Positions 53,087-63,909 of a stretch of 64,000 bases of DNA are shown one piece after another. The notes under the pieces are model-generated. The model made no database searches. It was not told the DNA's origin and was given only the letters and a program-made list of their open reading frames with translations. This DNA comes from Acidobacteriota bacterium (GTDB lineage Bacteria > Acidobacteriota > UBA6911 > RPQK01 > JAJDTT01). Location: NCBI GenBank assembly GCA_965217775.1, contig CBDCJH010000002.1, positions 1,408,001-1,472,000 on the forward strand, read 5' to 3'. Each line of letters begins with the position of its first letter. Within the stretch, counting starts at the first letter, position 1. Both the position numbers and the translations under genes were made by a program.

Positions 53087-55963
53087 GTGGAATTTTTCCA
53101 AGAGTTGTTCGGGACCTTTCTAATCGCCCTTGCGGTCTTTTTCATGGCTGGGGTGATCCTGACTCTTGTTACTGCCGTCCTTGGTTGGTCGCTCTATAAA
53201 GCTCGGCGACGGATAGACCAGCTTGTCACTCGCGCCACCAGCCTGGCGACCACGCTTGCCTTCAAGACGCCCTCGTCTCCGGAGGACGAGTCCGCTTGGG
53301 AGCCCGGTCCTGCCGGGTCCGAACGGACCGAATCACGACGCCCCTTTCGCTTCCGTGACCACCCCATCCTGACCATCGCTCTAGTTGCCGGTGTGTTCAT
53401 GATCTTCTTCGGAGGGTTACTGATCCCCTTTCTGCTTCTGGCCGCCTTTCCCGTGGTTCCAGTCGTCCTTGGAGTGTTGCGGTATAGAGCTCAACGGCGG
53501 ATACGGGCACTGACCGCTCGAATCAACGCCTTGGAAGAGAAGTTGGCCGCCGGATCGCCCTCGTCCCCGCCGTCCGCTGTCGCAGAACCGAGCTCGCCAG
53601 CAGCAGCGGCGGCAAAGAGGCCGGTGGAAGCAACGGAGGGGGTGGCCAATCCCGATCGGGAGCCGGATCCTGCGAAGCCGGCGTGGACCGATGCGCTGCA
53701 CTCGTTTCTCTTCGGCGGCAACACCCTCACGCGGGTCGGCGTCATCCTCCTATTCTTCGGCTTCGCTTTCTTTCTGAGCTACGCGGCCGAACAGGGCTGG
53801 TTCTCGATCCAGTTCCGCCTGGGTGTCGCCGCGGCCGCCGGCGTTGCCCTGTTGACGCTTGGATGGCTCCTGCGGGACTTGCGCCGAGAATATGCGCTTG
53901 CGCTGCAAGGCGGCGGCGCAGGCATCGCGTACCTCACCGCCTTTGCGGCCGTCAATTTCTACGACGTGATCGGTCCCGCGGCCGGGTTGTCAGCCATGAT
54001 CCTGCTGGTCGCGGTCACCGGGGCTCTGGCATTGAGGCAGGACGCGCCGAGTCTGGCTTTATTGTCTTCCCTGGGAGGATTCCTGGGTCCGGTCCTGGTC
54101 ACCCGCGACGCCAGCCACGTGGCTCTCTTTTCCTACTATGCCGTTCTCGACGTCGGAATCGTGGCCGTGGCATGGTTCCGGGCCTGGCGCCTTCTGAGCC
54201 TGCTGGGGTTCGTGTTCACGTTCCTGGTCGGCGCCTTATGGGGTGCTGCGTATTATCAACCTCAGCATTTCTCCACGACTCAACCGTTCCTGGCGCTGTT
54301 TCTGGCAATTTTCGTCGCGGTTCCAATACTGCATGCGTGGCGCCAGCCGCCGCGGCTTGTGGGGTTCATCGATGGCACCCTCGTCTTTGGAGTGCCGCTC
54401 GCGGCTTTCATCCTGCAGTATCGGCTCGCAAGCGGATTCGAATACGGTCCCGCCTTCAGTGCTCTCGCCTTTTGCGTTTTCTACGCCGTCGCGGCCGGCC
54501 TGGTCAGCGGACGCGGTCGAGATTCATTGCGGCCGCTGGTGGAATCGTTCGTCGCCCTGTCGGTCGTCTTCGGGATACTCGCAATCCCTCTCGCGGGTGA
54601 CGCGCACTGGGTCTCCATCGCGCTGGCTCTTGCGGGCGCGGCGATCGTCCGGATCAGTACGCGCCAAAATCGCCGTTTACTCCAGTTGTCGGGACTGGGA
54701 ATTCAGTTCCTGGCGGGCCTTATTGCAATCAGCGGGCATTCATCGAGTGCACCAGCGGTATTGGACATGGGGCACCTGACGGTGACGTTGGCCGGCATGT
54801 TTTCGGCCTGGTGCCTCCGTCGACGCCGGGTGGAGGGCGCGGATTCTCGTCTCGTGTCGGTTGTGGCGCTAGCTTGGGGATCGCTCTGGTGGTTTGGAAC
54901 CGGCGTCAACGAAATCTCACGGCATCTGTCTTCGCTCGACCAGGATTGTGCAAATCTTGGGTTTGTCGCCATCAGCGCCGCAGTATTCGCCCTGCTCCGG
55001 ACCCGGCTCGACTGGAAGGACTTGGCGTACCCGCCATTGCTCCTGCTGCCCGCGATGGTCCTCCTGACCATCGACTGGATCTTCACGACCTCCCATCCGC
55101 TCGTCGGCTGGGGCGCCCTCGCCTGGCCGGCCGCGTTCCTGATTCAGTATTGGCTGCTGTGGCGTTGCGAGACCGACTGGTCAAGAGCGACGCCCTGGGT
55201 CCACTGCGGCACGCTGTGGCTCGGCGTGTTTCTGGTTTGGCGGGAAGCCGTGTGGATCAGCGGGCAGATCGCCTCTGACGATCCAAGGTGGCCGTTCGTG
55301 ATGTGGGCCCTGGTTCCAGCTGTTTTCCTCTGTTCGCTTATGACGTTTCGGACTTTTCTTTCCTGGCCGATCGAACGCTTTCGGCAGATCTATCTCGACG
55401 TCGGGCAACTCCCCCTGGTGATCACCGTCTCGGTCTGGATGCTGGTTGCCAGCTTCCATGCGGGGGCTTCCCATCCGCAGAGCTATATTCCGCTCCTGAA
55501 TCCTGTCGAGTTCGTACAGTTGTTCTCCCTGGGTGTGCTGTTCCAGTGGTCCAGGGTGGACGCCGGCAGGAGGATAAGCGCGATACGGTGGCCGACTCTT
55601 GGATTCATTTCGTTCGTGGCGCTGAACGGGGCTCTCGCCCGCACGGCCTGCCGCTTCCTCGAGTTGCCGTTCGAGGCCCGCGCGCTCCTTTCCTCCGGGG
55701 TGTTTCAGGTCATCCTGTCTGTCGTCTGGACGACCGTTGCCCTGGTCATCATGCTCCTTGCAACCCGGGTGAGGCGGCGTCCCGCCTGGCAAGTCGGCGC
55801 CGCCCTGCTCGTGGTGACCGTGATCAAGCTGCTCTTGTTCGACCTCGCCGATACCGGCACGCTGACGCGGATCGTGTCCTTCATTGTCGTGGGCGGTCTC
55901 ATCCTCGTCGTCGGCTACTTCTCACCGTTGCCGCCCAAAGACGCGGAATCGAAAAATGACTAG
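53087..55963 (+). CDS. DUF2339 family integral membrane protein
   Basis: GGNTLTRVGVILLFFG, YALALQGGG, C-terminal KLLLFDL...RIVSFIVVG...GYFSPLPP; many TM segments. Confidence 0.85.
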   Translation: MEFFQELFGTFLIALAVFFMAGVILTLVTAVLGWSLYKARRRIDQLVTRATSLATTLAFKTPSSPEDESAWEPGPAGSERTESRRPFRFRDHPILTIALVAGVFMIFFGGLLIPFLLLAAFPVVPVVLGVLRYRAQRRIRALTARINALEEKLAAGSPSSPPSAVAEPSSPAAAAAKRPVEATEGVANPDREPDPAKPAWTDALHSFLFGGNTLTRVGVILLFFGFAFFLSYAAEQGWFSIQFRLGVAAAAGVALLTLGWLLRDLRREYALALQGGGAGIAYLTAFAAVNFYDVIGPAAGLSAMILLVAVTGALALRQDAPSLALLSSLGGFLGPVLVTRDASHVALFSYYAVLDVGIVAVAWFRAWRLLSLLGFVFTFLVGALWGAAYYQPQHFSTTQPFLALFLAIFVAVPILHAWRQPPRLVGFIDGTLVFGVPLAAFILQYRLASGFEYGPAFSALAFCVFYAVAAGLVSGRGRDSLRPLVESFVALSVVFGILAIPLAGDAHWVSIALALAGAAIVRISTRQNRRLLQLSGLGIQFLAGLIAISGHSSSAPAVLDMGHLTVTLAGMFSAWCLRRRRVEGADSRLVSVVALAWGSLWWFGTGVNEISRHLSSLDQDCANLGFVAISAAVFALLRTRLDWKDLAYPPLLLLPAMVLLTIDWIFTTSHPLVGWGALAWPAAFLIQYWLLWRCETDWSRATPWVHCGTLWLGVFLVWREAVWISGQIASDDPRWPFVMWALVPAVFLCSLMTFRTFLSWPIERFRQIYLDVGQLPLVITVSVWMLVASFHAGASHPQSYIPLLNPVEFVQLFSLGVLFQWSRVDAGRRISAIRWPTLGFISFVALNGALARTACRFLELPFEARALLSSGVFQVILSVVWTTVALVIMLLATRVRRRPAWQVGAALLVVTVIKLLLFDLADTGTLTRIVSFIVVGGLILVVGYFSPLPPKDAESKND

Positions 55964-56122
55964 AGATCTGACAGTCCTGGACGGACATGGAGGCGAAAGA
56001 ATACGCGCCGAAGAGATGGGACCTGCCGTATCGAAACCCGACGGGGATCTATGGCCTGCCGGACGATGCTTTCGATTGACCGTCAGGAAATCCCGACCTG
56101 ACCGAGAGATTCAGGCGCTGTA

Positions 56123-56794
56123 TCACTTGCGCCCGACCAGCACCGAAATCGGAGTTTGGCTCCAAATGCGCATGGCGTCGAAGCCCGCCCGGGTCATCGC
56201 CTCCAGCTCCCGTTCCAGTGGGAAATACGTGTCTTCATCCGACCATTCGTCGAAGTGCCGGTAGGCGCGCTCTTCAGGGATCCCGCGCGAGACCATGTGC
56301 GCCGCCCAAGCCGCGAAGTCCGCAGCTTTGCGAGAGACATCGTCCGGCATGGTCGCGTCGCCGTTGACGAACACGCCTCCCGGGGTCAGCACCTTGTGGA
56401 CCCGTTGATAGAGTTGGGCTTTGGAGTTCAGATCCGGTACGTGATGCATCGCCAAAGAGGCGGCAACGGCGTCGCAACGGGGAAGGGCGTCATGGAATGA
56501 TTGCCTTCTCAGGCCTACTCGCTCGCCGAACCGGTGCAGTCGCATTTGGGCGCAGACCAACATTTCGTCGTCGACGTCGATCAACTCGACGACGCACTGG
56601 CCGCACTTCTCCAGGATCGCCTCGGAAAGAGCCCCAGTTCCGGCGCCCAAGTCGAGCACCTTCTTGGGCTGGCTGAAGGCGACCGCCCGGGCAACCTGCT
56701 CCAGCATTCGATCGTAGCCGGGAATGAACTGCCGGATGATCTCGTCGTATTCATCGATGTCGAGATGCAGGTGCCGGCGAACGGAGTGGCTCAT
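56123..56794 (-). CDS. Class I SAM-dependent methyltransferase
   Basis: FIPGYD, VLDLGAGTG, SLAMHH, LTPGGVFVNGD motifs. Confidence 0.9.
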   Translation of the reverse strand: MSHSVRRHLHLDIDEYDEIIRQFIPGYDRMLEQVARAVAFSQPKKVLDLGAGTGALSEAILEKCGQCVVELIDVDDEMLVCAQMRLHRFGERVGLRRQSFHDALPRCDAVAASLAMHHVPDLNSKAQLYQRVHKVLTPGGVFVNGDATMPDDVSRKAADFAAWAAHMVSRGIPEERAYRHFDEWSDEDTYFPLERELEAMTRAGFDAMRIWSQTPISVLVGRK

Positions 56795-56889
56795 GAGACC
56801 AAGTAACCATCGACAGGCCGGGCGGGCGAAGGCGGAGCTACGATCGCAACTTTTCTTTCAATCTCGTGACGGCTCTCACCACGAAACGT

Positions 56890-57228
56890 TCAGCCTTCGC
56901 GCCGGAGTTCGTGGAGCATGATGCCGCGCCCCGCCAGTCTGGCTTCAAGCCACCGCTTGAGGGATGCCTGACTCTCTCGGGACCGGCGACCGGCGAGCAG
57001 ACCCTCCACGCTGATGTCCTCGTCGAGGTCCTCCCAATGAATGTGCTGGCTGCCGGCGTACAGCTCCCAGTTATTTCGTTCGTCCTCAGTCGCATGGGCA
57101 AGCCTTGGATACCAAGCCAGTGGAACCGAAATTATTCGTCCGTCAGCCAGCTCGGCCGTCAGCAGATCATCTGTCACTGTGATCCTCGTGGCTCCCGGCA
57201 CTTCCAATTCAACCGTCGAAGTAGTCAA
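56890..57228 (-). CDS. DUF2442 domain protein (putative antitoxin)
   Basis: LADGRIISVPLAWYPRL, IHWEDLDEDISVEGLL; TTG start with GGAGG RBS, overlapping the upstream gene. Confidence 0.85.
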   Translation of the reverse strand: MTTSTVELEVPGATRITVTDDLLTAELADGRIISVPLAWYPRLAHATEDERNNWELYAGSQHIHWEDLDEDISVEGLLAGRRSRESQASLKRWLEARLAGRGIMLHELRREG

Positions 57229-57445
57229 GCCAAGCCTCCACGAATGCTTTGCTGTTTTGTTTGACAATTCTCTCAATCCGGCGAAGTTCGGTCCGACCAA
57301 TGCGACCACTTCTCTGCAGTACTACCGGGTCGAGCCAGAACTTGGCAAATCCACCATTGGTCCGGACATGTATATGCGGTGGCTCATCTCGATCACTTGA
57401 GACAAAGTAGAAACGATACGGGCCATCGCGAAGCACCGTCGGCAT
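57209..57445 (-). CDS. DUF4160 domain protein (putative toxin)
   Basis: MPTVLRDGPYRFYF..DRDEPPHIHV...AKFWL...EAW..YF. Confidence 0.85.
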   Translation of the reverse strand: MPTVLRDGPYRFYFVSSDRDEPPHIHVRTNGGFAKFWLDPVVLQRSGRIGRTELRRIERIVKQNSKAFVEAWLDYFDG

Positions 57446-57752
57446 GTTATCACCTTCGTATCCGATATCCGGAAACCCAACCACGCCGGCAGGCAGCGAA
57501 TGGGGAGCACCTTCTCACCGATGTTGCCGATCTCACTTTGGCCTCGGGACACGTGGGGCGTAGGTGTCCCCATTCGGACTTCTGAGCGCGTCACTTTTCC
57601 AAACGGCTTGGCAACGATAGACGCGATAATTCTTCCAGCTTCTCGGAAGGTTCGGTTAGAAACCACGCAACGTGCTCACTTCGGGGTCGGCCCAATCTTC
57701 AGGCAGACTCTAGCCAGAAGTCACGCCTCGTAATCGGGCTTCGGGTTTCGGA

Positions 57753-57758
57753 TATAAT
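57753..57758 (+). promoter_or_regulatory. Possible -10 element for the FG-GAP/UnbV/thioredoxin gene
   Basis: TATAAT 30 bp upstream of the TTG start; GAGGA RBS at 57774-57778. Confidence 0.35.
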
Positions 57759-57788
57759 GGCGGCTCTTACAGCGAGGACAGACTCGAT

Positions 57789-59498
57789 TTGAAGCAAAAT
57801 TCACGACAGAAAACGGTTCAGGACATTTCCTCGACTTTTGGGCGAGGGGGATGGATCGCCACTGTTCTTCTGGTGAGTCTTCTCTTTTCTCCCCATGCCG
57901 CAGGGGAAACCGAGTTGGACAAAGTTGAGCTGAACCAGATCGAGGAGCGCTCCGAATCCCTGGCCAACTCCCTTCTGGAATTCTCGGTGACGGTCCGGGA
58001 GCGGGACATGGTTCGGATCAGCAAGTTCTTCGTGTCGCCGGCCAGGGTGACGCCGTGGCCGTCTCTCTCCGGCGCACCGGCTACGGAGTTCAAGTGGATC
58101 TCGACGGCCGCGCCCCGAATTGCACGGAAGCGTCCGAAGAAGATGCCCCGGACTGAACTGATGAAGAGCTGGGACAAGCTTCTGGGAACCTTCTCCTCCG
58201 TGGAGGATGCCCGATTCCAGGTCAAGGGGGCCCGCTTCAGCCAACGGAAGGGGAGAGTCGAGGGCAAGGGGGATCTCAAATTCTTCCTGATCGGACGTGA
58301 CGGCAAGAACCATCGATTCTGGGTGAAGGGAACGGGACGGCTGGTCGCGGTCCAGACGGGAGAGGAAAGCTGGCGGATCTCCGAATTCCGGGTGGACGAG
58401 GTCAGGACCATGCGGGCGGCTATGGACCTCTTCTCCGAGATCTGCATTCCGGCGGGCGTCTCTAATTCGCTGCCCCGATACGGAGAGCCGGGGAACGACG
58501 ATTTCGTCTATCACGGCGCCGCTGCGGGAGACCTGGACGGGGACGGGCTACAGGATCTGGTGGTTACGGGCATCAATCGAAACTACCTGTACCTGAACCA
58601 GGGTGGCCGGTTTCAAGACGTGGCCGACAGGGCGGGAATCTCGATAACGCCTCCTGGAACGGCCCCTCTCCTCCTCGACTACGACAACGATGGAGACCTG
58701 GACGTCTTCATGGCCTCGGTGGGAGAGCAGATGCTGTTCGAGAACCGTCTGGTCCCCTCCGGAAAGCTGCTCTTCTTCGACATCTCGCAAGAAGTCGGCA
58801 TAGCGGTGAACGCCATCGGTTTCAGCGCCACCGCCGGTGACGTGAACAAGGACGGATGGACTGACGTCTACGTCGCCTCCTACAACCGCTATGGCCGAGT
58901 CATGCCCGACTCCTGGCGCCGCGCCTCCAACGGGACTCCGAACCTGCTCTTTCTGAATCAAGGCGATGGGAGCTTCCGCGAAGCGGGGGCCGATTGGGGC
59001 GTCCGCGACCAGCGCTGGAGCTACGCCGCCCAGTTTGCCGACATCAACGGAGATGGACGGCTGGACCTCTACGTGGCCAACGACTTCGGCGAGAACGGCT
59101 ACTACGTCAACCTGGGGGACCGGTTCGAGGACCGGGCCACCAGCCTGGGGCTTCTGGACCCCGGCAACGGCATGGGCGTCTCCTTCGGGGACTTCAACAA
59201 CGACGGGCGGATCGACCTCTACGTCACCAACATGTCCTCCACCGCCGGGAACCGGATCCTGGACCGGTTGTTTCCGCAGGGAAGGGGAGACCGTAGTGGA
59301 CTCAAGAAGCTGGCGGCGGGAAACACTCTGTTCGAAGGCGTGGACGAGGGTGGTTTCCGCGACGTGAGCGCGAAGTTCGGACCCTTCGTCGCCGGATGGG
59401 CCTGGGGAGGAGTCTTCGTGGACTTCGACAACGACGGTTGGGAGGACCTCTACTCTCCCAACGGGTTCATCAGCGGCAAGTCCATGAAAGACACATGA
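57789..59498 (+). CDS. FG-GAP/CRTAC1-like protein, N-terminal part (ends at a possibly recoded TGA)
   Basis: Hydrophobic signal segment, uncharacterised N-terminal domain, six DxDxDGxxDL repeats, ending WAWG...DFDNDGWEDLYSPNGFISGKSMKDT-TGA. Confidence 0.85.
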   Translation: MKQNSRQKTVQDISSTFGRGGWIATVLLVSLLFSPHAAGETELDKVELNQIEERSESLANSLLEFSVTVRERDMVRISKFFVSPARVTPWPSLSGAPATEFKWISTAAPRIARKRPKKMPRTELMKSWDKLLGTFSSVEDARFQVKGARFSQRKGRVEGKGDLKFFLIGRDGKNHRFWVKGTGRLVAVQTGEESWRISEFRVDEVRTMRAAMDLFSEICIPAGVSNSLPRYGEPGNDDFVYHGAAAGDLDGDGLQDLVVTGINRNYLYLNQGGRFQDVADRAGISITPPGTAPLLLDYDNDGDLDVFMASVGEQMLFENRLVPSGKLLFFDISQEVGIAVNAIGFSATAGDVNKDGWTDVYVASYNRYGRVMPDSWRRASNGTPNLLFLNQGDGSFREAGADWGVRDQRWSYAAQFADINGDGRLDLYVANDFGENGYYVNLGDRFEDRATSLGLLDPGNGMGVSFGDFNNDGRIDLYVTNMSSTAGNRILDRLFPQGRGDRSGLKKLAAGNTLFEGVDEGGFRDVSAKFGPFVAGWAWGGVFVDFDNDGWEDLYSPNGFISGKSMKDT

Positions 59499-60593
59499 AG
59501 CTTCTTCTGGCGCCACGTCGTGGCGTCCACGGTCGGCGACGAGAAGGCCGGCAACCAGGACTACCAGAAGAACCACATGGCTCTGCTCTTCGAGCAGGGA
59601 CTGTCCTTCAGCGGATTCGAACGGGACGCCCTTTTCCTGAATCGGGAGGGAAGACGGTTCCAGGATATCTCAGGGGTCTCGGGCATCGACTCCATCTCCG
59701 ACGGACGTTCGGCCGTCACCGTCGACCTGGACAATGACGGCGATCTGGACATCTTTCTCACCACCATCCAGGGAGAAGGACATCTCCTGTTCCGGAACAA
59801 CGTGGGCCAGGACAAGGGCTTCATCCGGGTCGAGCTGGAGGGCACGAAGAGCGGCAAGGATGCCTTCGGCGCCCAGGTCCGCGTCAAGACTCCCTTCGGC
59901 GTCCAGACCCGGATCCTCTCGGGAGGCAGCGGTTTCATGGCTCAGCCCGACCGGCGGCTCCTGTTCGGTCTGGGGGAATCCCGGGAGGCCGAATGGATGG
60001 AGGTCACCTGGCCCTCCGGTGTCCGCCAGCGGCTCGGTCCCATTCCCGCCGGCGTCTCCTTGAAGCTGGTGGAGGAACAACCCGACTACCAGACCCTGTC
60101 TCTGCCGTCGGCCGCTCTACCCGATCCCCTGGAGGAGGAACAGGTCCTCTGGAGCAAGCTGCAGATCAAACGGGGCCTACCCATGCCTGAATTGGCGCTG
60201 AAGACGCTTCCGGACGGGGAGGAGATCTCGCTTCCGCTGGAAAAGGGAACGTCCTATCTGGTGAATCTCTGGGCCACCTGGTGCGGGCCCTGCCGGAGGG
60301 AGATGCCTGAATTGGAAGCCGCCCAGGCCAAATTGGAAGAGAACGGGATCCGGGTGATCGGTCTCAGTCTGGACCAGGGGGTTCCCCTCGCCGACGTGGA
60401 ATCGTATGCCCGGGGCCTGGGGGTGTCGTATCCGATCTACCTGCTGGAGCAGGAGGATCTGAAGAAGATCTTCGCCGGAGACGAAAGGTTCGTCCCCTTC
60501 TCGATCCTGGTGGACGAGGAAGGCCGGGTCGCCGACAGCCATGCCGGTTGGGGCGAAAAGGCCAAGCGGAAGCTGGATCGCCTTTGCCGGTAG
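59499..60593 (+). CDS. FG-GAP + ASPIC/UnbV + TlpA-like thioredoxin domains, in-frame continuation of the upstream ORF
   Basis: SFFWRHVVAS...SFSGFERD...DLDNDGDLD; DAFGAQV...GSGFMAQ..RLLFGLG...VTWPSG (UnbV); NLWATWCGPCRREMP (TlpA). Confidence 0.85.
   Translation, partial: SFFWRHVVASTVGDEKAGNQDYQKNHMALLFEQGLSFSGFERDALFLNREGRRFQDISGVSGIDSISDGRSAVTVDLDNDGDLDIFLTTIQGEGHLLFRNNVGQDKGFIRVELEGTKSGKDAFGAQVRVKTPFGVQTRILSGGSGFMAQPDRRLLFGLGESREAEWMEVTWPSGVRQRLGPIPAGVSLKLVEEQPDYQTLSLPSAALPDPLEEEQVLWSKLQIKRGLPMPELALKTLPDGEEISLPLEKGTSYLVNLWATWCGPCRREMPELEAAQAKLEENGIRVIGLSLDQGVPLADVESYARGLGVSYPIYLLEQEDLKKIFAGDERFVPFSILVDEEGRVADSHAGWGEKAKRKLDRLCR
59508..59529 (+). promoter_or_regulatory. Candidate bacterial SECIS hairpin
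   Basis: TGG-CGCCAC-[GTC]-GTGGCG-(T)-CCA, with 9 nt between the TGA (59496-59498) and the stem; the apical loop starts with G. Confidence 0.55.
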
Positions 60594-60707
60594 GGAATGG
60601 GCGACCTGGGAGGGGACATTCCCCTCTGCCTCCCATCAGATGCGGCCTGATCTAGTCCGTAATTCCTCTCAGGGGTATCAGAAATCGGGACCGGGAGCAG
60701 GAATAGG

Positions 60708-62039
60708 ATGGAATTCTCCAGACGTAGTTTCTTTCGAACGGCAGGACACCTGCATCTCCTGCTGCCGCTCCTGTGTTGCATCCATCAGAGCGCTCAGGCG
60801 GAGCAATCGCTCTTCCGGAGCTCCGACATGACCCTGGTGCAGATGAATGGTGTGCGGCTCCGGTTGGGCAAGCCGGTCCAGGTCACGGAGAGCCACGGTT
60901 ACGCCTATGTGCCCACCCTGGCAAGGTTTCCCGGGGGTGAGCTTCTGGTCACCTATTCGCTGGTTCCCGACACCAACGAGAACCCGTCCAACGTGGGAGC
61001 GTTCCAGATCTCCCGGGATGGAGGAAGGACCTGGGGCCACCGATACGAGGTGCTGCCCGAGCACCACCCCCTGATCTATGTGCCCCAGGAGGACGGCTCC
61101 CTGGTGGCCATACCGTCCCACCTGTTTCCCGTTTCCCCTGGAGACAGGCACAATTTCCGGGCTGCCTATCTCCGCTTCGAGCCGGGCGCGCGCCGCATGA
61201 TCCTGGAGCCGGATGGGGTAAGGGTCGTGGACTGGCCCTGGCCCGTGAACGTGGTGCCCCGTCCCGTGCCGAAGTCGAACTGGTACGTGAGAATGGCCTT
61301 CGACGGAATCGCCCTGAAGCTGGAGGACAGATGGCTGGCCACCGCCTACTCCCGGAGGGGAGATGAGCCAATGCAGCTCAACGTCGTCCTTGTCTCCCGG
61401 GACCAGGGACGAACCTGGCGCTACCTCTCCACTATCGCGGACGCGGCGATTTTGCCCACTCCACCCCGAAAGTGGGCCGGCGGCCCCAGCGAGACGGCCC
61501 TGGTCCGACTCGCCGACGGGGAGTTGATGGCGGTCTTTCGGGTGGGAAACGGACGGGACTGGAACCTGCGCCGGGCCTACAGCAAGGATGGTGGGACGAC
61601 CTGGTCCCAAGCCGACGTGATCCCGGCCTACAGCGTGGCGCCCAGCATGGTTCGCACCCGAGGCGGCACCATCGTCCTCTCCACGGGCCGGCCAGGAATA
61701 TCGCTCTGGTTCTCTACCGACGGGAGGGGACGCCGGTGGCAGGAGGTGGACGTGGTGAAACACCACAACCTCCACGTCCCAGATGAAACCTACCGCATCC
61801 TGCCCTATCCGTTTGACAATCCCCGGGAGATGAACACCTGGTCCTACACGGAGCTGGTGGAAGTCGCCCCCAACCGCCTCCTCCTGGTGTACGACAGAGT
61901 GCCGCCCGACCCCAGAATCGTTGCCTATGGAACCGATCCCCGTAGCACCGCGGCGGAGCGCCTGAGCTGGAGGCCCAGTCTCGACTCCGGAGAGCGGTTC
62001 CGCATCTTCCTGCTGCCCATCGAGGTCGAGGGGAACTGA
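60708..62039 (+). CDS. Sialidase/BNR (Asp-box) repeat family exported protein
   Basis: SRRSFF twin-Arg-like signal; SRDGGRTW, SRDQGRTW, SKDGGTTW, STDGRGRRW Asp boxes. Confidence 0.8.
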   Translation: MEFSRRSFFRTAGHLHLLLPLLCCIHQSAQAEQSLFRSSDMTLVQMNGVRLRLGKPVQVTESHGYAYVPTLARFPGGELLVTYSLVPDTNENPSNVGAFQISRDGGRTWGHRYEVLPEHHPLIYVPQEDGSLVAIPSHLFPVSPGDRHNFRAAYLRFEPGARRMILEPDGVRVVDWPWPVNVVPRPVPKSNWYVRMAFDGIALKLEDRWLATAYSRRGDEPMQLNVVLVSRDQGRTWRYLSTIADAAILPTPPRKWAGGPSETALVRLADGELMAVFRVGNGRDWNLRRAYSKDGGTTWSQADVIPAYSVAPSMVRTRGGTIVLSTGRPGISLWFSTDGRGRRWQEVDVVKHHNLHVPDETYRILPYPFDNPREMNTWSYTELVEVAPNRLLLVYDRVPPDPRIVAYGTDPRSTAAERLSWRPSLDSGERFRIFLLPIEVEGN

Positions 62040-62457: not shown

Positions 62458-63909
62458 CTATGCGAGCAACTTGTCCACCACGTGTCCGCCCACGTCCGTG
62501 AGGCGGAATTGCCTTCCCTGGAACTTGTAGACCAGCCTCGTGTGGTCCAGGCCCAGCAGATGCAGGATGGTGGCGTGCATATCGTGCATGTGGATGGGGT
62601 CTTCCACGATGTCGTAGCCCAGTTCGTCCGTCTTCCCGATGGTGATTCCCGGCTTGGTGCCGCCGCCGGCCAGCCACATGGTGAAGGCGTACGGATGGTG
62701 GTCCCGCCCCGGATACTTTCCAGGATGCTCGTTCATGGGAGTCCGGCCGAACTCGCCGCCCCAGATCACCAGTGTGTCCTCCAGCAGGCCCCGGTCCTTC
62801 AAGTCCTTGATCAGAGCGGCCGAGGCCTGGTCGGTTTCCCGGCAGCGGGTCTGCAAGCCCTCTTTGTGAATGATGGACCCTTGCGCGATCAGTCCGTGGT
62901 GGTCCCACCCGTGGTGATAGAGCTGGACGAAACGGACACCCCGTTCCACCAAGCGCCGGGCCAGGAGGCAGTTGTTGGCGAAGGACTCCTTTCCGGGCTC
63001 GGTCCCGTAGAGACGGTGGATGTGCTCGGGCTCATCGCTGATATCCATCAGTTCGGGGACGCTGGTCTGCATCCGGTAGGCCAACTCGTAGGACGCGATG
63101 CGGGTCAGGATCTCCGGATCGCCCACCGCCTGGTATTGCCGCTGGTTGAGCTTTTTCAAAGCGTCCAGCGACCGGCGGCGCGCCTTTCGGTTCATCCATT
63201 CGGGGTCGGACAGGAACAGAACCGGATCGCCCTGGGACCGGAACTGCACGCCCTGATAGACGGTGGGCAGGAAGGCGGGACCCCAGCACGAATTGCCGGC
63301 GAAGACCTGCACCGGGCCCGATTGCAGGACCACGAAGCCGGGCAGGTCGCGGTTCTCGCTGCCCAGTCCGTAGGTCAGCCACGAGCCCATGCTGGGCCGT
63401 CCGATGAGATGGTGGCCCGTGTTCATGAACAGTTGGGCCGGTGCGTGGTTGAACTGCTCGGCGTGGACGGATTTGACGATGGTGATGTCGTCCACGACGT
63501 TGGCGAGGTGGGGCAGCAGCTTCGAGAGCTCGGCCCCAGACTCACCGTATCGATCATAGGAGTAGGGAGAGGCCAAAGCCTGAGGCGTCCCTCGCAGAAA
63601 GGCGAACCGTTTGCCGTCCAGCGTGCCTTCCGGGACGTTCTGTCCATCCAAGGCCGTGAGCCGCGGCTTGTTCTCGAACATATCGAGCTGAGACGGACCG
63701 CCCGACATGAACAGGAAGATGATGTTCTTGGCCTTGGGTTCGAAGTGCCCCGCCTTGGGCGCCATGGGATGCCGGGCGTCGAGAGCGGGAGCCGCAAAGA
63801 GCCGGTCGTCCATCAGCCCGGCCAGAGCGACGGACCCGATGCTCATCCCTCCCCGGAAGAAGAAATGACGGCGGGTGATGGCTTTCAGCATCTCCTGTTG
63901 GATTTTCAT
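62458..63909 (-). CDS. DUF1501 family protein (Tat signal)
   Basis: TRRHFF; [46 protein letters not shown]. Confidence 0.92.

Follow-up and report, generated by a model that had tools for sequence, protein, structure and literature searches.

The question raised by this locus is whether an in-frame TGA at positions 59496-59498 ends a gene or encodes selenocysteine (Sec) within one. The codon lies in the window, the whole 64,000-nucleotide stretch of acidobacterial DNA that was analysed, and all features described below are on its forward strand. It forms an in-frame join between a 569-aa open reading frame (ORF) with a TTG start (57789..59498) and a 364-aa continuation; the second gene as called is a 357-aa downstream ORF. 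The downstream frame closes at TAG 60591-60593, and the read-through product has 934 residues with its sole stop at codon 570, in agreement with an earlier note on this DNA that had described the two halves as one unbroken frame. By eye, a candidate -10-like hexamer, TATAAT (57753..57758), lies about 30 nt upstream of the start codon, and a Shine-Dalgarno-like GAGGA (57774..57778) lies 10 nt upstream of the TTG. No GGAGG-like motif is visible by eye upstream of GTG 59520, the presumed start of the second half, for which no clear ribosome-binding site had been noticed before either. Orthologs span residues 1-934 at 43-100% identity, each with exactly one TGA, and the locus has the conserved in-frame UGA and the conserved frame on both sides of it that are found in bacterial SelB/SECIS-dependent selenoprotein genes. 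We consider it very probable that 57789..60593 is a selenoprotein gene of 934 codons plus a TAG stop, read through at the UGA with Sec at codon 570, because the TGA is conserved, a SECIS-like hairpin behind it covaries, the Sec machinery is present, and the S-x-F-W residues that follow are conserved in the manner of codons. The earlier proposal of one 934-aa protein with Sec at residue 570 is thus strongly supported.

Conservation of the TGA is the first line of evidence. In a stop-blind context scan of all loci, the in-frame stop is TGA at the same column in 179 of 179 homologous loci that have one. A protein search blind to the type of stop, covering 401 genomes of the phylum, returned 89 matching rows, of which 68 contain one TGA and 21 no stop; TAA or TAG, which the earlier note had named as pointing away from Sec, occurs in none of the 89 and at none of the 179 loci. 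The ortholog is present in 15 of 15 genomes of the taxonomic family, at 64-100% identity and with exactly one TGA, and the TGA column is identical in 38/38, 10/10 and 20/20 loci examined. The TGA had been expected to recur in several lineages if it is functional, and it is found within the genus (8 further genomes), in the sister genus (6 genomes) and across several phyla. It is also bridged by contigs of independent runs, three of which are RNA libraries (two studies); no difference at the TGA is found among the 40 listed of the 81 differences for these contigs, with uncovered parts and joints from other organisms or paralogs (90% likeness) left out. An assembly error, a recent nonsense mutation or a pseudogene, for which nothing speaks except the stop itself, is refuted by this recurrence across genomes, phyla and independent contigs, and its probability is close to nil.

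Another possibility is that the TGA is an ordinary stop between two real genes, the second started at GTG 59520 or by re-initiation. Gene callers do split the locus, as had been foreseen: 88 of 120 listed database relatives are 510-640 aa long and end at …DT, i.e., at the TGA. Yet the internal stop is invariably TGA, whereas the terminal stop of these genes is not fixed (TAG 29, TGA 7, TAA 2), and among TGA loci the two halves abut with no intervening nucleotides and never differ in frame. An unpaired spacer ahead of any restart codon holds codons 571-574 (S-x-F-W), which change mainly at third positions. Counting the T of TGA as position 1, the base at position 6 is C in 90, T in 58 and G in 7 of 155 distinct sequences, the serine codon being AGC or AGT and in some TCG; codon-like constraint extends over residues 571-576, upstream of the GTG, which lacks a ribosome-binding motif. 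Full-length single-chain relatives with a sense codon at the Sec column exist, and a single fold with pLDDT >90 spans the junction in an AlphaFold2 model. Against this evidence two separate genes are very improbable.

The second line of evidence is the hairpin that follows the TGA. The conserved SECIS core (59510..59526), delimited by comparison of relatives, consists of a six-pair stem (positions 15-20 with 26-31) after an 11-nt spacer and a loop at positions 21-25 (59516-59520) with an invariant G22 (59517) and U23 (59518). In the window sequence C21 and G25 also pair, which leaves a 3-nt GUC loop, and nucleotides 13-34 fold in this form at -12.8 kcal/mol, while the loop region of most relatives reads CA-GGUCG-UG. 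The hairpin first described at 59508-59529, beginning 9 nt past the TGA and with its loop G 18 nt past it, is upheld in its core and not in its outer pairs, since 13-34 and 14-33 are paired in only 85 and 81 of the 155 distinct sequences. Folded alone, a 71-nt segment gives z = -0.52, with 60 of 200 shuffles folding equally well, and is at chance level in G+C-rich DNA; the hairpin gains significance only from comparison with other genomes. G22 is found in 155 of 155 and U23 in 154 of 155 distinct sequences, a set of which about three quarters, as in the covariation set, came from a DNA pattern scan (at least 116 rows) that fixed positions 13-17, 19-20, 22-23 and 25-26; an unbiased subset of 27 sequences agrees, with fewer changes. 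Because the conserved W-R-[HQ]-V-V is encoded by most of the stem, little can be concluded from invariance at those positions, and the independent RNA-level signal is limited to pair 18-28 and wobble positions 27, 30 and 31. Positions 18 and 28 can pair in 145 of 155 sequences, through five pair types (CG 44, GU 42, AU 22, UA 21, GC 16). The fourfold-degenerate third base of Val578, which pairs with C19, is G in 146 of 155, and that of Val577, located in the loop, is C in 104, G in 33 and T in 18. The covariation score over 120 distinct 33-mers is 0.252 against 0.098 +/- 0.009 for shuffled alignments, a value reached by 0 of 500 shuffles, and slid controls score at most 0.090.

The SECIS of Escherichia coli fdhF is a short hairpin 11 nt past the UGA with a small GGUC-type loop in which a G and a U are critical. 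The element described here resembles it in the 11-nt distance, the small loop, and the G and U near positions 22-24, but its loop has one base more (5 nt), or is a 3-nt GUN in His variants like the window sequence, and the conserved bulged U on the 5' arm is absent; SelB is its putative binding partner. The published bacterial SECIS (bSECIS) model specifies a loop of 3-9 nt, a stem of 4-16 bp, a G in the first two loop positions, a UGA-to-loop distance of 16-37 nt, and a minimum free energy (MFE) of -7.5 kcal/mol or lower (PMC13188914, Fig. 2 legend). By these values of the legend, the loop of 3-5 nt with G-U, the stem of 6-7 bp, and the UGA-to-loop distance of 17-18 nt all fall within range, and the MFE is -7.5 kcal/mol or lower in 146 of 155 sequences; with the covariation of pair 18-28, the G-initial hairpin can be read as a bacterial SECIS, as originally suggested. 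An Rfam search of 56000-61000 with permissive filters gave no match.

The host is equipped for Sec insertion. Its own genome contains SelA (443 bits), the SelB wing domain (74.6 bits), SelD (298.5 bits), and a tRNA-Sec (selC, 69 bits) with anticodon TCA, i.e., all four components that the earlier note had listed for checking. Among 44 genomes with an ortholog, SelA is found in 40; in the other 4, SelA was not found and SelB is present. In the mechanism that we propose, the UGA would be decoded as selenocysteine by SelB with Sec-tRNA, and SelB would be recruited by the small mRNA hairpin, from 11 nt downstream, through its six-pair stem and G-U apical loop. Bacterial Sec insertion competes with release factor 2, and the UGA might accordingly serve a dual use in which translation mostly terminates to give a 569-residue fragment and occasionally reads through by Sec or near-cognate decoding, at a ratio set by selenium. 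This is improbable, as the 569-residue product would be an incomplete propeller with the last blade, the UnbV domain, and the thioredoxin domain all past the TGA, and the covariation of the SECIS argues for SelB over near-cognate decoding.

The 934-residue chain that would result from read-through has an AlphaFold2 model of pLDDT 90.8 and pTM 0.90. Residues 1-39 (57789..57905) form a putative N-terminal signal peptide or membrane anchor, with a basic stretch, the hydrophobic WIATVLLVSLLF, and then HAA-G, which suggests that the protein is exported; pLDDT is <50 at residues 1-40. Residues 45-215 (57921..58433) form a domain of helices and a curved sheet that is NTF2/SnoaL-like by its shape in the model and has no Pfam match. 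One source labels the homolog P0034 'ketosteroid isomerase-like'. The central part, residues about 235-690 (58491..59858), is an FG-GAP beta-propeller with calcium-type DxDxDG motifs according to Pfam and Foldseek; FG-GAP_3 scores 139.7 bits over 6 stretches, FG-GAP/FG-GAP_3 repeats are found on either side of the TGA, and the Asp/Gly columns of the propeller are invariant in the alignment of relatives. After blade strand 553-556 the propeller is broken by a helical pair, 570-581 and 590-602, in the model. The UGA (59496..59498), at the column shared by the 179 loci, corresponds to U570, the first residue of helix 570-581; the Sec had previously been placed in a propeller loop, which the model contradicts. 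Beyond it lie the UnbV_ASPIC domain at residues 692-756 (59862..60056; PF07593, 57.5-59.4 bits against a cut-off of 23.4) and a TlpA/ResA-like thioredoxin-fold domain at residues 796-921 (60174..60551; Pfam Redoxin/AhpC-TSA/Thioredoxin, with PDB matches by sequence and fold), whose WCGPC at residues 831-835 includes the CGPC active-site motif (C832, C835; 60282..60293). Pfam thereby bears out the further FG-GAP repeat, UnbV domain, and WCGPC thioredoxin domain first read from the second half. Among 38 Sec-containing relatives, no Cys/Sec position other than U570, C832, and C835 is invariant. From the N-terminus, the order would be signal peptide, NTF2-like domain, CRTAC1/ASPIC-kind calcium-type FG-GAP propeller, Sec570 helix, UnbV/ASPIC, and TlpA/ResA-like CxxC domain, with the Sec570 helix as a probable insertion late in the propeller and Sec at its N-terminal end.

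The protein belongs to the CRTAC1/ASPIC-UnbV group, whose FG-GAP repeats with DxDxDG calcium-type motifs are followed by UnbV_ASPIC in one chain; its Pfam scores are above cut-offs and its fold matches murine CRTAC1 (PDB 9etn), which ranks first in sequence (E 4.5e-23) and in fold comparison (Foldseek E 4.1e-27, TM 0.74 normalised by target length). In contrast to CRTAC1, it has Sec as the first residue of an inserted helix, carries an NTF2-like domain at its N-terminus and a TlpA-like thioredoxin domain at its C-terminus, and lacks the EGF domain. Full-length relatives are named 'CRTAC1 family protein' at NCBI, and a long paralog additionally has TPR repeats. The C-terminal domain shares with TlpA, ResA, and DsbE the thioredoxin fold with W-C-x-P-C and the Pfam Redoxin and AhpC-TSA matches; with PDB matches by sequence and fold to TlpA (1jfu, 4txo) and ResA (1st9, 4nmu) and an active-site CxxC, it is a member of the TlpA/ResA-like thioredoxin superfamily. 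Its NCBIfam scores are far under the cut-offs for TlpA (57.4 vs. 230 bits) and ResA (64.3 vs. 170 bits), and it is thus an ortholog of neither. Whereas TlpA, ResA, and DsbE are free, membrane-anchored proteins, the thioredoxin domain is here fused in cis to its presumed client.

What Sec570 does is a separate question, to which the residues at its column in relatives without TGA are relevant. A non-Cys residue occupies the column in 45 of 49 such homologs: S 13, R 6, E 5, N 5, G 3, A 3, L 3, Q 2, D 2, and V, I, and T 1 each. Cys occurs in the remaining 4 (P0002, P0014, P0016, P0063), known from protein sequence, and 201 genomes of one phylum, searched for the P0016 gene, yielded only TGA-bearing relatives at 45-59% identity. 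A variable residue in homologs, which had been put forward as a reason to doubt Sec, is therefore what is found, but it is outweighed by the remaining evidence for Sec insertion. Non-redox residues at the column of relatives are unusual for a catalytic Sec, and this variability argues that Sec was probably gained within a subfamily at a helix N-cap rather than being an ancestral catalytic residue.

The Sec forms differ from the others in their thioredoxin domain, since CxxC is intact in 150 of 161 evaluable Sec forms vs. 5 of 45 non-Sec, non-Cys forms. In 10 independent pairs drawn from a 205-row tree, CxxC changes in the same direction as Sec in 6.8 on average, in the opposite direction in 0, and shows no difference in 3.2 (sign test, median p 0.0156). 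This co-occurrence suggests a Sec-CxxC redox relay, and it lends weight to the earlier idea that Sec is redox-cycled by the protein's own thioredoxin domain; the relay itself we infer. On balance, we lean toward Sec570 as a redox-active selenolate outside the cytoplasm, resolved by the fused C832/C835 and re-reduced through a shuttle of the CcdA/DsbD kind. The selenolate would attack an oxidised substrate, C832 and, after it, C835 in the fused domain would resolve the selenenic acid or selenenylsulfide, and the C832-C835 disulfide would be re-reduced by a membrane electron shuttle of that kind. In MsrA/MsrB-thioredoxin fusions and in Etrx-MsrAB of the cell envelope, an oxidised catalytic Cys or Sec is regenerated, on the far side of the cytoplasmic membrane, by a fused or dedicated thioredoxin-fold CxxC domain. 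The likeness to these systems would lie in the proposed relay mechanism alone, as the Sec-bearing part is unrelated in sequence or fold. Neither a conserved partner gene nor CcdA/DsbD was seen beside the gene among its window neighbours or, by Pfam, among 81 of 120 candidate flanking ORFs of other loci. The neighbours in the window are DUF2339, a methyltransferase, a BNR protein, and DUF1501.

The relay would not be obligatory, since some Sec forms lack an intact CxxC and some non-Sec forms have one. Sec may instead be inserted for another job, metal or ligand binding or action as a lone nucleophile, with the TlpA-like domain serving a separate client, much as TlpA proteins serve metal-site cysteines of other proteins. 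Consistent with such a division are the 11 of 161 Sec forms in which CxxC is not intact, including a verrucomicrobial group (L118, L201, L215, L221, L227), the five non-Sec forms that keep it (L077, P0004, P0005, P0007, P0038), and the ordinary helix N-cap residues at the column in non-Sec relatives. It is nevertheless rather unlikely, given that Sec and CxxC are gained or lost together and never in opposition in the independent pairs, and that U570, C832, and C835 are the sole invariant Cys/Sec positions.

Bacterial selenoproteins are mostly thioredoxin-fold or metal-cofactor enzymes. The thioredoxin-fold members have a domain of the same superfamily as the present protein and a SECIS just past the UGA (PMC13188914), but there Sec replaces a Cys of the CxxC, whereas here the CxxC is all-Cys and Sec lies about 260 residues upstream in a beta-propeller. 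The model NF041054 (WAxxUGC_long) scores 35 bits against a cut-off of 300, and no NCBIfam selenoprotein model matched above its cut-off. Table 1 of PMC13188914, a 2026 list of 119 prokaryotic selenoprotein families, has no entry with FG-GAP, UnbV/ASPIC, or CRTAC1 domains, although its supplement may list more; the terms FG-GAP, ASPIC, CRTAC, VCBS, and propeller have 0 occurrences in the main texts of PMC13188914 and PMC12013277. A literature search of titles and abstracts found no bacterial selenoprotein with FG-GAP, CRTAC1, UnbV, ASPIC, or VCBS. The earlier impression that this is not an established selenoprotein family fits these searches, and most likely a widespread bacterial family is missing from the list as published in Table 1.

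By the titles of sequence records, members of the family are found in Acidobacteriota, Planctomycetota, Verrucomicrobiota, and Latescibacterota, with up to 8 copies per genome and 4 to 8 in some Planctomycetota and Verrucomicrobiota; the genome of the window has 146 matches to the 934-aa protein. Tentatively, and with somewhat less than an even chance for the whole, we propose the protein as the first representative of a large family of secreted beta-propeller selenoenzymes that spans several phyla, works by an intramolecular Sec-CxxC selenenylsulfide relay, and is systematically split in two by gene callers and missing from inventories. In public protein sets these genes appear as two truncated ORFs, so selenoproteome counts would be too low in all four phyla, by up to 8 genes per genome, and the family, if real, would be one of the commonest selenoprotein families in Planctomycetota and Verrucomicrobiota. 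The family would be easy to detect by its highly regular fdhF-like mini-SECIS, which also recommends it for heterologous expression. A calcium-type beta-propeller as in CRTAC1/ASPIC proteins would be a structural context new for Sec, and redox chemistry would offer an initial clue to what a very large bacterial protein family of no known function does.

The selenoprotein gene of the window (57789..60593, + strand) opens with TTG 57789, reaches an in-frame TGA at 59496-59498 and runs on unbroken in the same frame up to TAG 60591-60593. The earlier note had described a single frame across the TGA, and this holds; with the TGA read as selenocysteine (Sec, U), the product has 934 residues and U is residue 570. 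By eye, GAGGA lies 10 nt and TATAAT ~30 nt 5' of the start on the same strand. Residues 1-39 are signal-peptide-like, with a basic stretch, the hydrophobic segment WIATVLLVSLLF and HAA-G, from which we infer that the read-through protein would be exported. By Pfam, FG-GAP/FG-GAP_3 repeats flank the TGA (139.7 bits, six stretches), UnbV_ASPIC covers residues 692-756 and Redoxin/AhpC-TSA/Thioredoxin residues 796-921, where the WCGPC motif provides C832 and C835. In an AlphaFold2 model built from a 45-row alignment (pLDDT 90.8, pTM 0.90), an N-domain of helix plus sheet (residues 45-215) is followed by the propeller, a helical pair (570-581 and 590-602) is inserted after strand 553-556 with U570 as residue 1 of the first helix, and C-terminal to these helices come the sandwich of the UnbV domain and a thioredoxin fold. 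Foldseek finds murine CRTAC1 (9etn, E 4.1e-27) as the closest fold of the propeller and UnbV part and matches the C-terminus to ResA/TlpA structures; a PDB sequence search concurs on both.

The in-frame TGA is conserved well beyond this assembly. The ortholog surveys searched at protein level, reading through stop codons and recording which stop each one was. At family level, an ortholog with exactly one TGA is present in 15/15 genomes at 64-100% identity, and ten further rows are a paralog, 35-38% identical, that also has one TGA. Across the phylum, sampled evenly with 401 genomes, 75 genomes matched at E <= 1e-80, in 89 rows; 68 rows contain one in-frame stop, TGA every time (one of them from the unpublished genome G063), 21 contain none, and TAA or TAG occurs in 0/89. 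The stop occupies the same alignment column in 38/38, 10/10 and 20/20 fetched loci, in the context …[KNE]D[TL]-TGA-S-x-F-W-R-[HQ]-V-V…, and a scan of all loci by protein context, blind to the stop, yields 179 true cases with TGA in all 179. The true terminal stops of the same 38 genes vary (TAG 29, TGA 7, TAA 2), so these organisms do use TGA as a normal stop, and the internal TGA stays unchanged. The possibility of an assembly error or recent nonsense mutation, raised at the outset, is answered by the 15 family genomes and by occurrence in several phyla, as judged from record titles. Contigs from other public runs also span the TGA (X1 record 4, X9 record 24, X11 record 12, X14 record 16); X9, X11 and X14 are RNA libraries from two studies, and a contig from an RNA library is no proof of transcription. 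None of the 40 contig differences listed, out of 81, falls at 59496-59498. Metatranscriptome runs labelled 'sponge metagenome' (X9-X13) contain sequence near-identical to 58900-60100 of the window (30-37% of sampled words).

The hairpin that the earlier note saw after the TGA exists: with numbering from the T of TGA (position 1), nt 13-34 fold at -12.8 kcal/mol, which on its own is unremarkable in G+C-rich DNA (z -0.52). The stem, set off from the TGA by an 11-nt spacer, joins positions 15-20 to 26-31, and the loop, 21-25, reads N-G-U-N-G; the spacer and CA-GGUC-type loop are very similar to those of the E. coli fdhF mini-SECIS. The two sequence collections overlap, and with duplicates removed they amount to 155 distinct 48-mers and 120 distinct 33-mers. 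Among the 155, most of which came through a pattern that fixes positions 13-17, 19-20, 22-23 and 25-26 and leaves 18, 21, 24 and 27-33 free, G22 is invariant and U23 occurs in 154. Position 27, the fourfold-degenerate third base of Val578, is G in 146/155 and pairs with C19, while the corresponding base of Val577, loop position 24, varies freely (C 104, G 33, T 18). Position 18, the free third base of Arg575, also varies (G 60, C 46, A 25, T 24), and yet pair 18-28 is formed in 145/155 (CG 44, GU 42, AU 22, UA 21, GC 16), against about 45% expected from the base frequencies of the two columns. Position 28 is the first base of codon 579, and since the pair covaries, a silent base ten nt upstream and the identity of residue 579 (Ala, Thr, Ser or Pro) change together. 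In the 120 distinct 33-mers, 91.7% of cells pair, and the covariation score is 0.252 versus 0.098 +/- 0.009 when shuffled (reached by 0/500) and at most 0.090 with slid partners. The subset found by protein search only (n=27) has G27 throughout and no broken 18-28 pair (CG 22, UA 4, AU 1). Five loci (L117, L131, L135, L168, L197) keep a six-pair hairpin, by eye, via a one- to two-base register shift, GGCGAC-AGGUG-GUCGCC. The bSECIS model as set out in PMC13188914 comprises a loop of 3-9 nt, a stem of 4-16 bp, a G in the first two loop positions, a UGA-to-loop distance of 16-37 nt and an MFE <= -7.5 kcal/mol. The family element falls within all four criteria of that source, with a UGA-to-loop distance of 17-18 nt and an MFE <= -7.5 kcal/mol in 146/155 sequences.

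The nine nucleotides directly after the TGA bear on the rival reading, two separately initiated proteins. These positions, 4-12, lie within the unpaired spacer and 5' of any restart codon and encode S-x-F. They vary as codons do: position 6 is C in 90, T in 58 and G in 7, position 12 is C in 128 and T in 25, and Ser571 is AGC or AGT, with TCG in some lineages. Such variation is constraint at the level of the protein, and it acts on residues that would be missing from a second ORF with a start of its own.

The machinery for Sec insertion, whose presence the earlier note had left to be checked, is encoded in the same genome: SelA (443.1 bits), the SelB SECIS-binding wing domain in an 829-codon frame (74.6 bits), SelD (298.5 bits versus a cut-off of 125) and tRNA-Sec (69 bits; anticodon TCA by ARAGORN). 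SelA is common in the phylum (301/401 genomes at E <= 1e-40) and therefore a weak discriminator; it is present in 40/44 ortholog-bearing genomes, and the four in which no true SelA match was found (G003, G325, G095, G263) all have SelB. In another genome, G035, the ortholog (C1:1153716-1156484) lies ~700 nt upstream of selA (1157200-1158285).

U570, C832 and C835 are the only invariant Cys/Sec positions in 38 Sec-bearing relatives. In 228 homologs we recorded which residue occupies the Sec column and which motif stands at the site of the CxxC; 161 Sec forms were evaluable and 18 further ones were not. Of the 161, 150 have an intact CxxC, two a degenerate one (CxxS 1, SxxN 1) and nine no detectable domain; among four Cys forms the motif is intact in two and the domain undetectable in two, none being degenerate; and among 45 with another residue it is intact in five, degenerate in 11 (SxxC 5, AxxC 3, AxxS 3) and without detectable domain in 29. 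A 205-row FastTree tree, built from propeller and UnbV columns only and using neither the thioredoxin domain nor the Sec column, shows at least 11 changes of the Sec/Cys state. Ten phylogenetically independent pairs show the CxxC in the same direction in 6.8 on average, opposite in 0 and no difference in 3.2 (sign test, median p 0.0156); Sec and the fused domain's nucleophilic Cys are thus gained and lost together. The earlier note had suggested that the protein's own thioredoxin domain recycles the Sec. The simplest and best mechanistic reading, which we favour by a modest margin of belief, is such a relay, in which the selenol of Sec570 would be regenerated by C832 and C835. The coupled gain and loss speak for it. 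Evidence against a strict relay comes from five non-Sec forms that keep CxxC and from five loci with Sec but no CxxC (L118, L201, L215, L221, L227; Verrucomicrobiales/Verrucomicrobiaceae per record title), which have ~416-419 residues after the TGA and a thioredoxin domain that is undetectable or degenerate (SxxN).

For the Sec column, the earlier note had counted Cys or Ser in homologs as support and a variable residue as refutation; relatives without TGA carry Cys (4) and Ser (13), and the column is otherwise variable there (R 6, E 5, N 5, G 3, A 3, L 3, Q 2, D 2, V 1, I 1, T 1). Many of these residues are typical of helix N-caps, and so Sec seems to have been acquired at the N-terminal end of a helix, where the helix dipole favours the anion, and not to be the catalytic residue that the superfamily had ancestrally. 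In a 201-genome sample, every closest relative of the Cys form P0016 has the TGA; the Cys forms themselves were read as protein sequences.

The window neighbours are a DUF2339 membrane protein (53087-55963, +), a divergent methyltransferase gene (56123-56794, -), a BNR/Asp-box repeat protein (60708-62039, +) 115 nt past the selenoprotein stop and DUF1501 (62458-63909, -). None of the DUF2339, BNR/Asp-box and DUF1501 genes is kept beside orthologs, no conserved neighbour hinting at a substrate was found among these or among 81 of 120 candidate flanking ORFs of other loci, and the ~1 kb before the start (56795-57788) has ORFs without Pfam match and no Rfam match. In three Pyrinomonadaceae loci, the family gene has a vanadium-haloperoxidase-like gene (DUF6851 + VCPO_2nd + PAP2) beside it, at L140:4022-5581, L149:2708-4321 and L151:6236-7825; these loci are related and thus count as one observation, a possible hint at oxidant chemistry.

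A DNA junction pattern (GAY NNN TGA, two free codons, YTN TGG CGN CAN GTN GT; one genome per species) matched at least 116 stretches. Among the 116 listed, 112 are true homologs by protein context; L187, L211 and L217 did not pass that filter, and L123 is a chance match. By record title, the matches listed comprise 45 loci in Acidobacteriota (Pyrinomonadaceae, Blastocatellia, Vicinamibacteria, Bryobacterales, Holophagales, Thermoanaerobaculia, Terriglobia, Chloracidobacterium), 41 in Planctomycetota (L123 counted in), 23 in Verrucomicrobiota, two each in Latescibacterota and 'Candidatus Multivorans', one in a Flavobacteriaceae bin and two unclassified. Single genomes hold several one-TGA matches, with seven, eight and four in those of L115 (G408), L113 (G410) and L130 (G409). 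The genome of the window has a second copy at G000:C2:5609672-5612182 (L015, TGA L015:2896-2898), a long form of about 1366 codons with six FG-GAP repeats, U, UnbV_ASPIC, AhpC/Redoxin with WCPPC and C-terminal TPR repeats, and this form has one TGA in 9/9 genus genomes searched. The query protein has 146 matches in its own genome, which points to dozens of FG-GAP/UnbV paralogs, most apparently without an in-frame stop.

No fitting selenoprotein model exists in NCBIfam, and FG-GAP, UnbV/ASPIC or CRTAC1 domains appear in none of the 119 prokaryotic selenoprotein families listed with domain identifiers in Table 1 of a 2026 review (PMC13188914), in agreement with the earlier view that this is not an established family. 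The main texts of that review and of the deep-Sep paper (PMC12013277) make no mention of FG-GAP, ASPIC, CRTAC, VCBS or propeller. Full-text searches of the open literature that paired selenoprotein or selenocysteine with FG-GAP, CRTAC1, UnbV, ASPIC or VCBS yielded no paper that was relevant as judged from its title or abstract.

The conserved TGA, the covarying SECIS, the Sec machinery and the constraint across the junction together bear out one read-through Sec protein, and we hold it highly probable that this is a genuine selenoprotein gene. Judged by the main texts and open literature covered, it represents a new family within the bacterial SECIS-dependent selenoproteins. As had been foreseen, gene callers split it at the TGA: among 120 database relatives listed, 88 break off at …DT after 510-640 aa, and those from NCBI stop at the TGA under the names 'VCBS repeat-containing' or 'FG-GAP-like repeat-containing protein'. 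The family is widespread and multi-copy, and the public protein sets examined carry its gene as two pieces.
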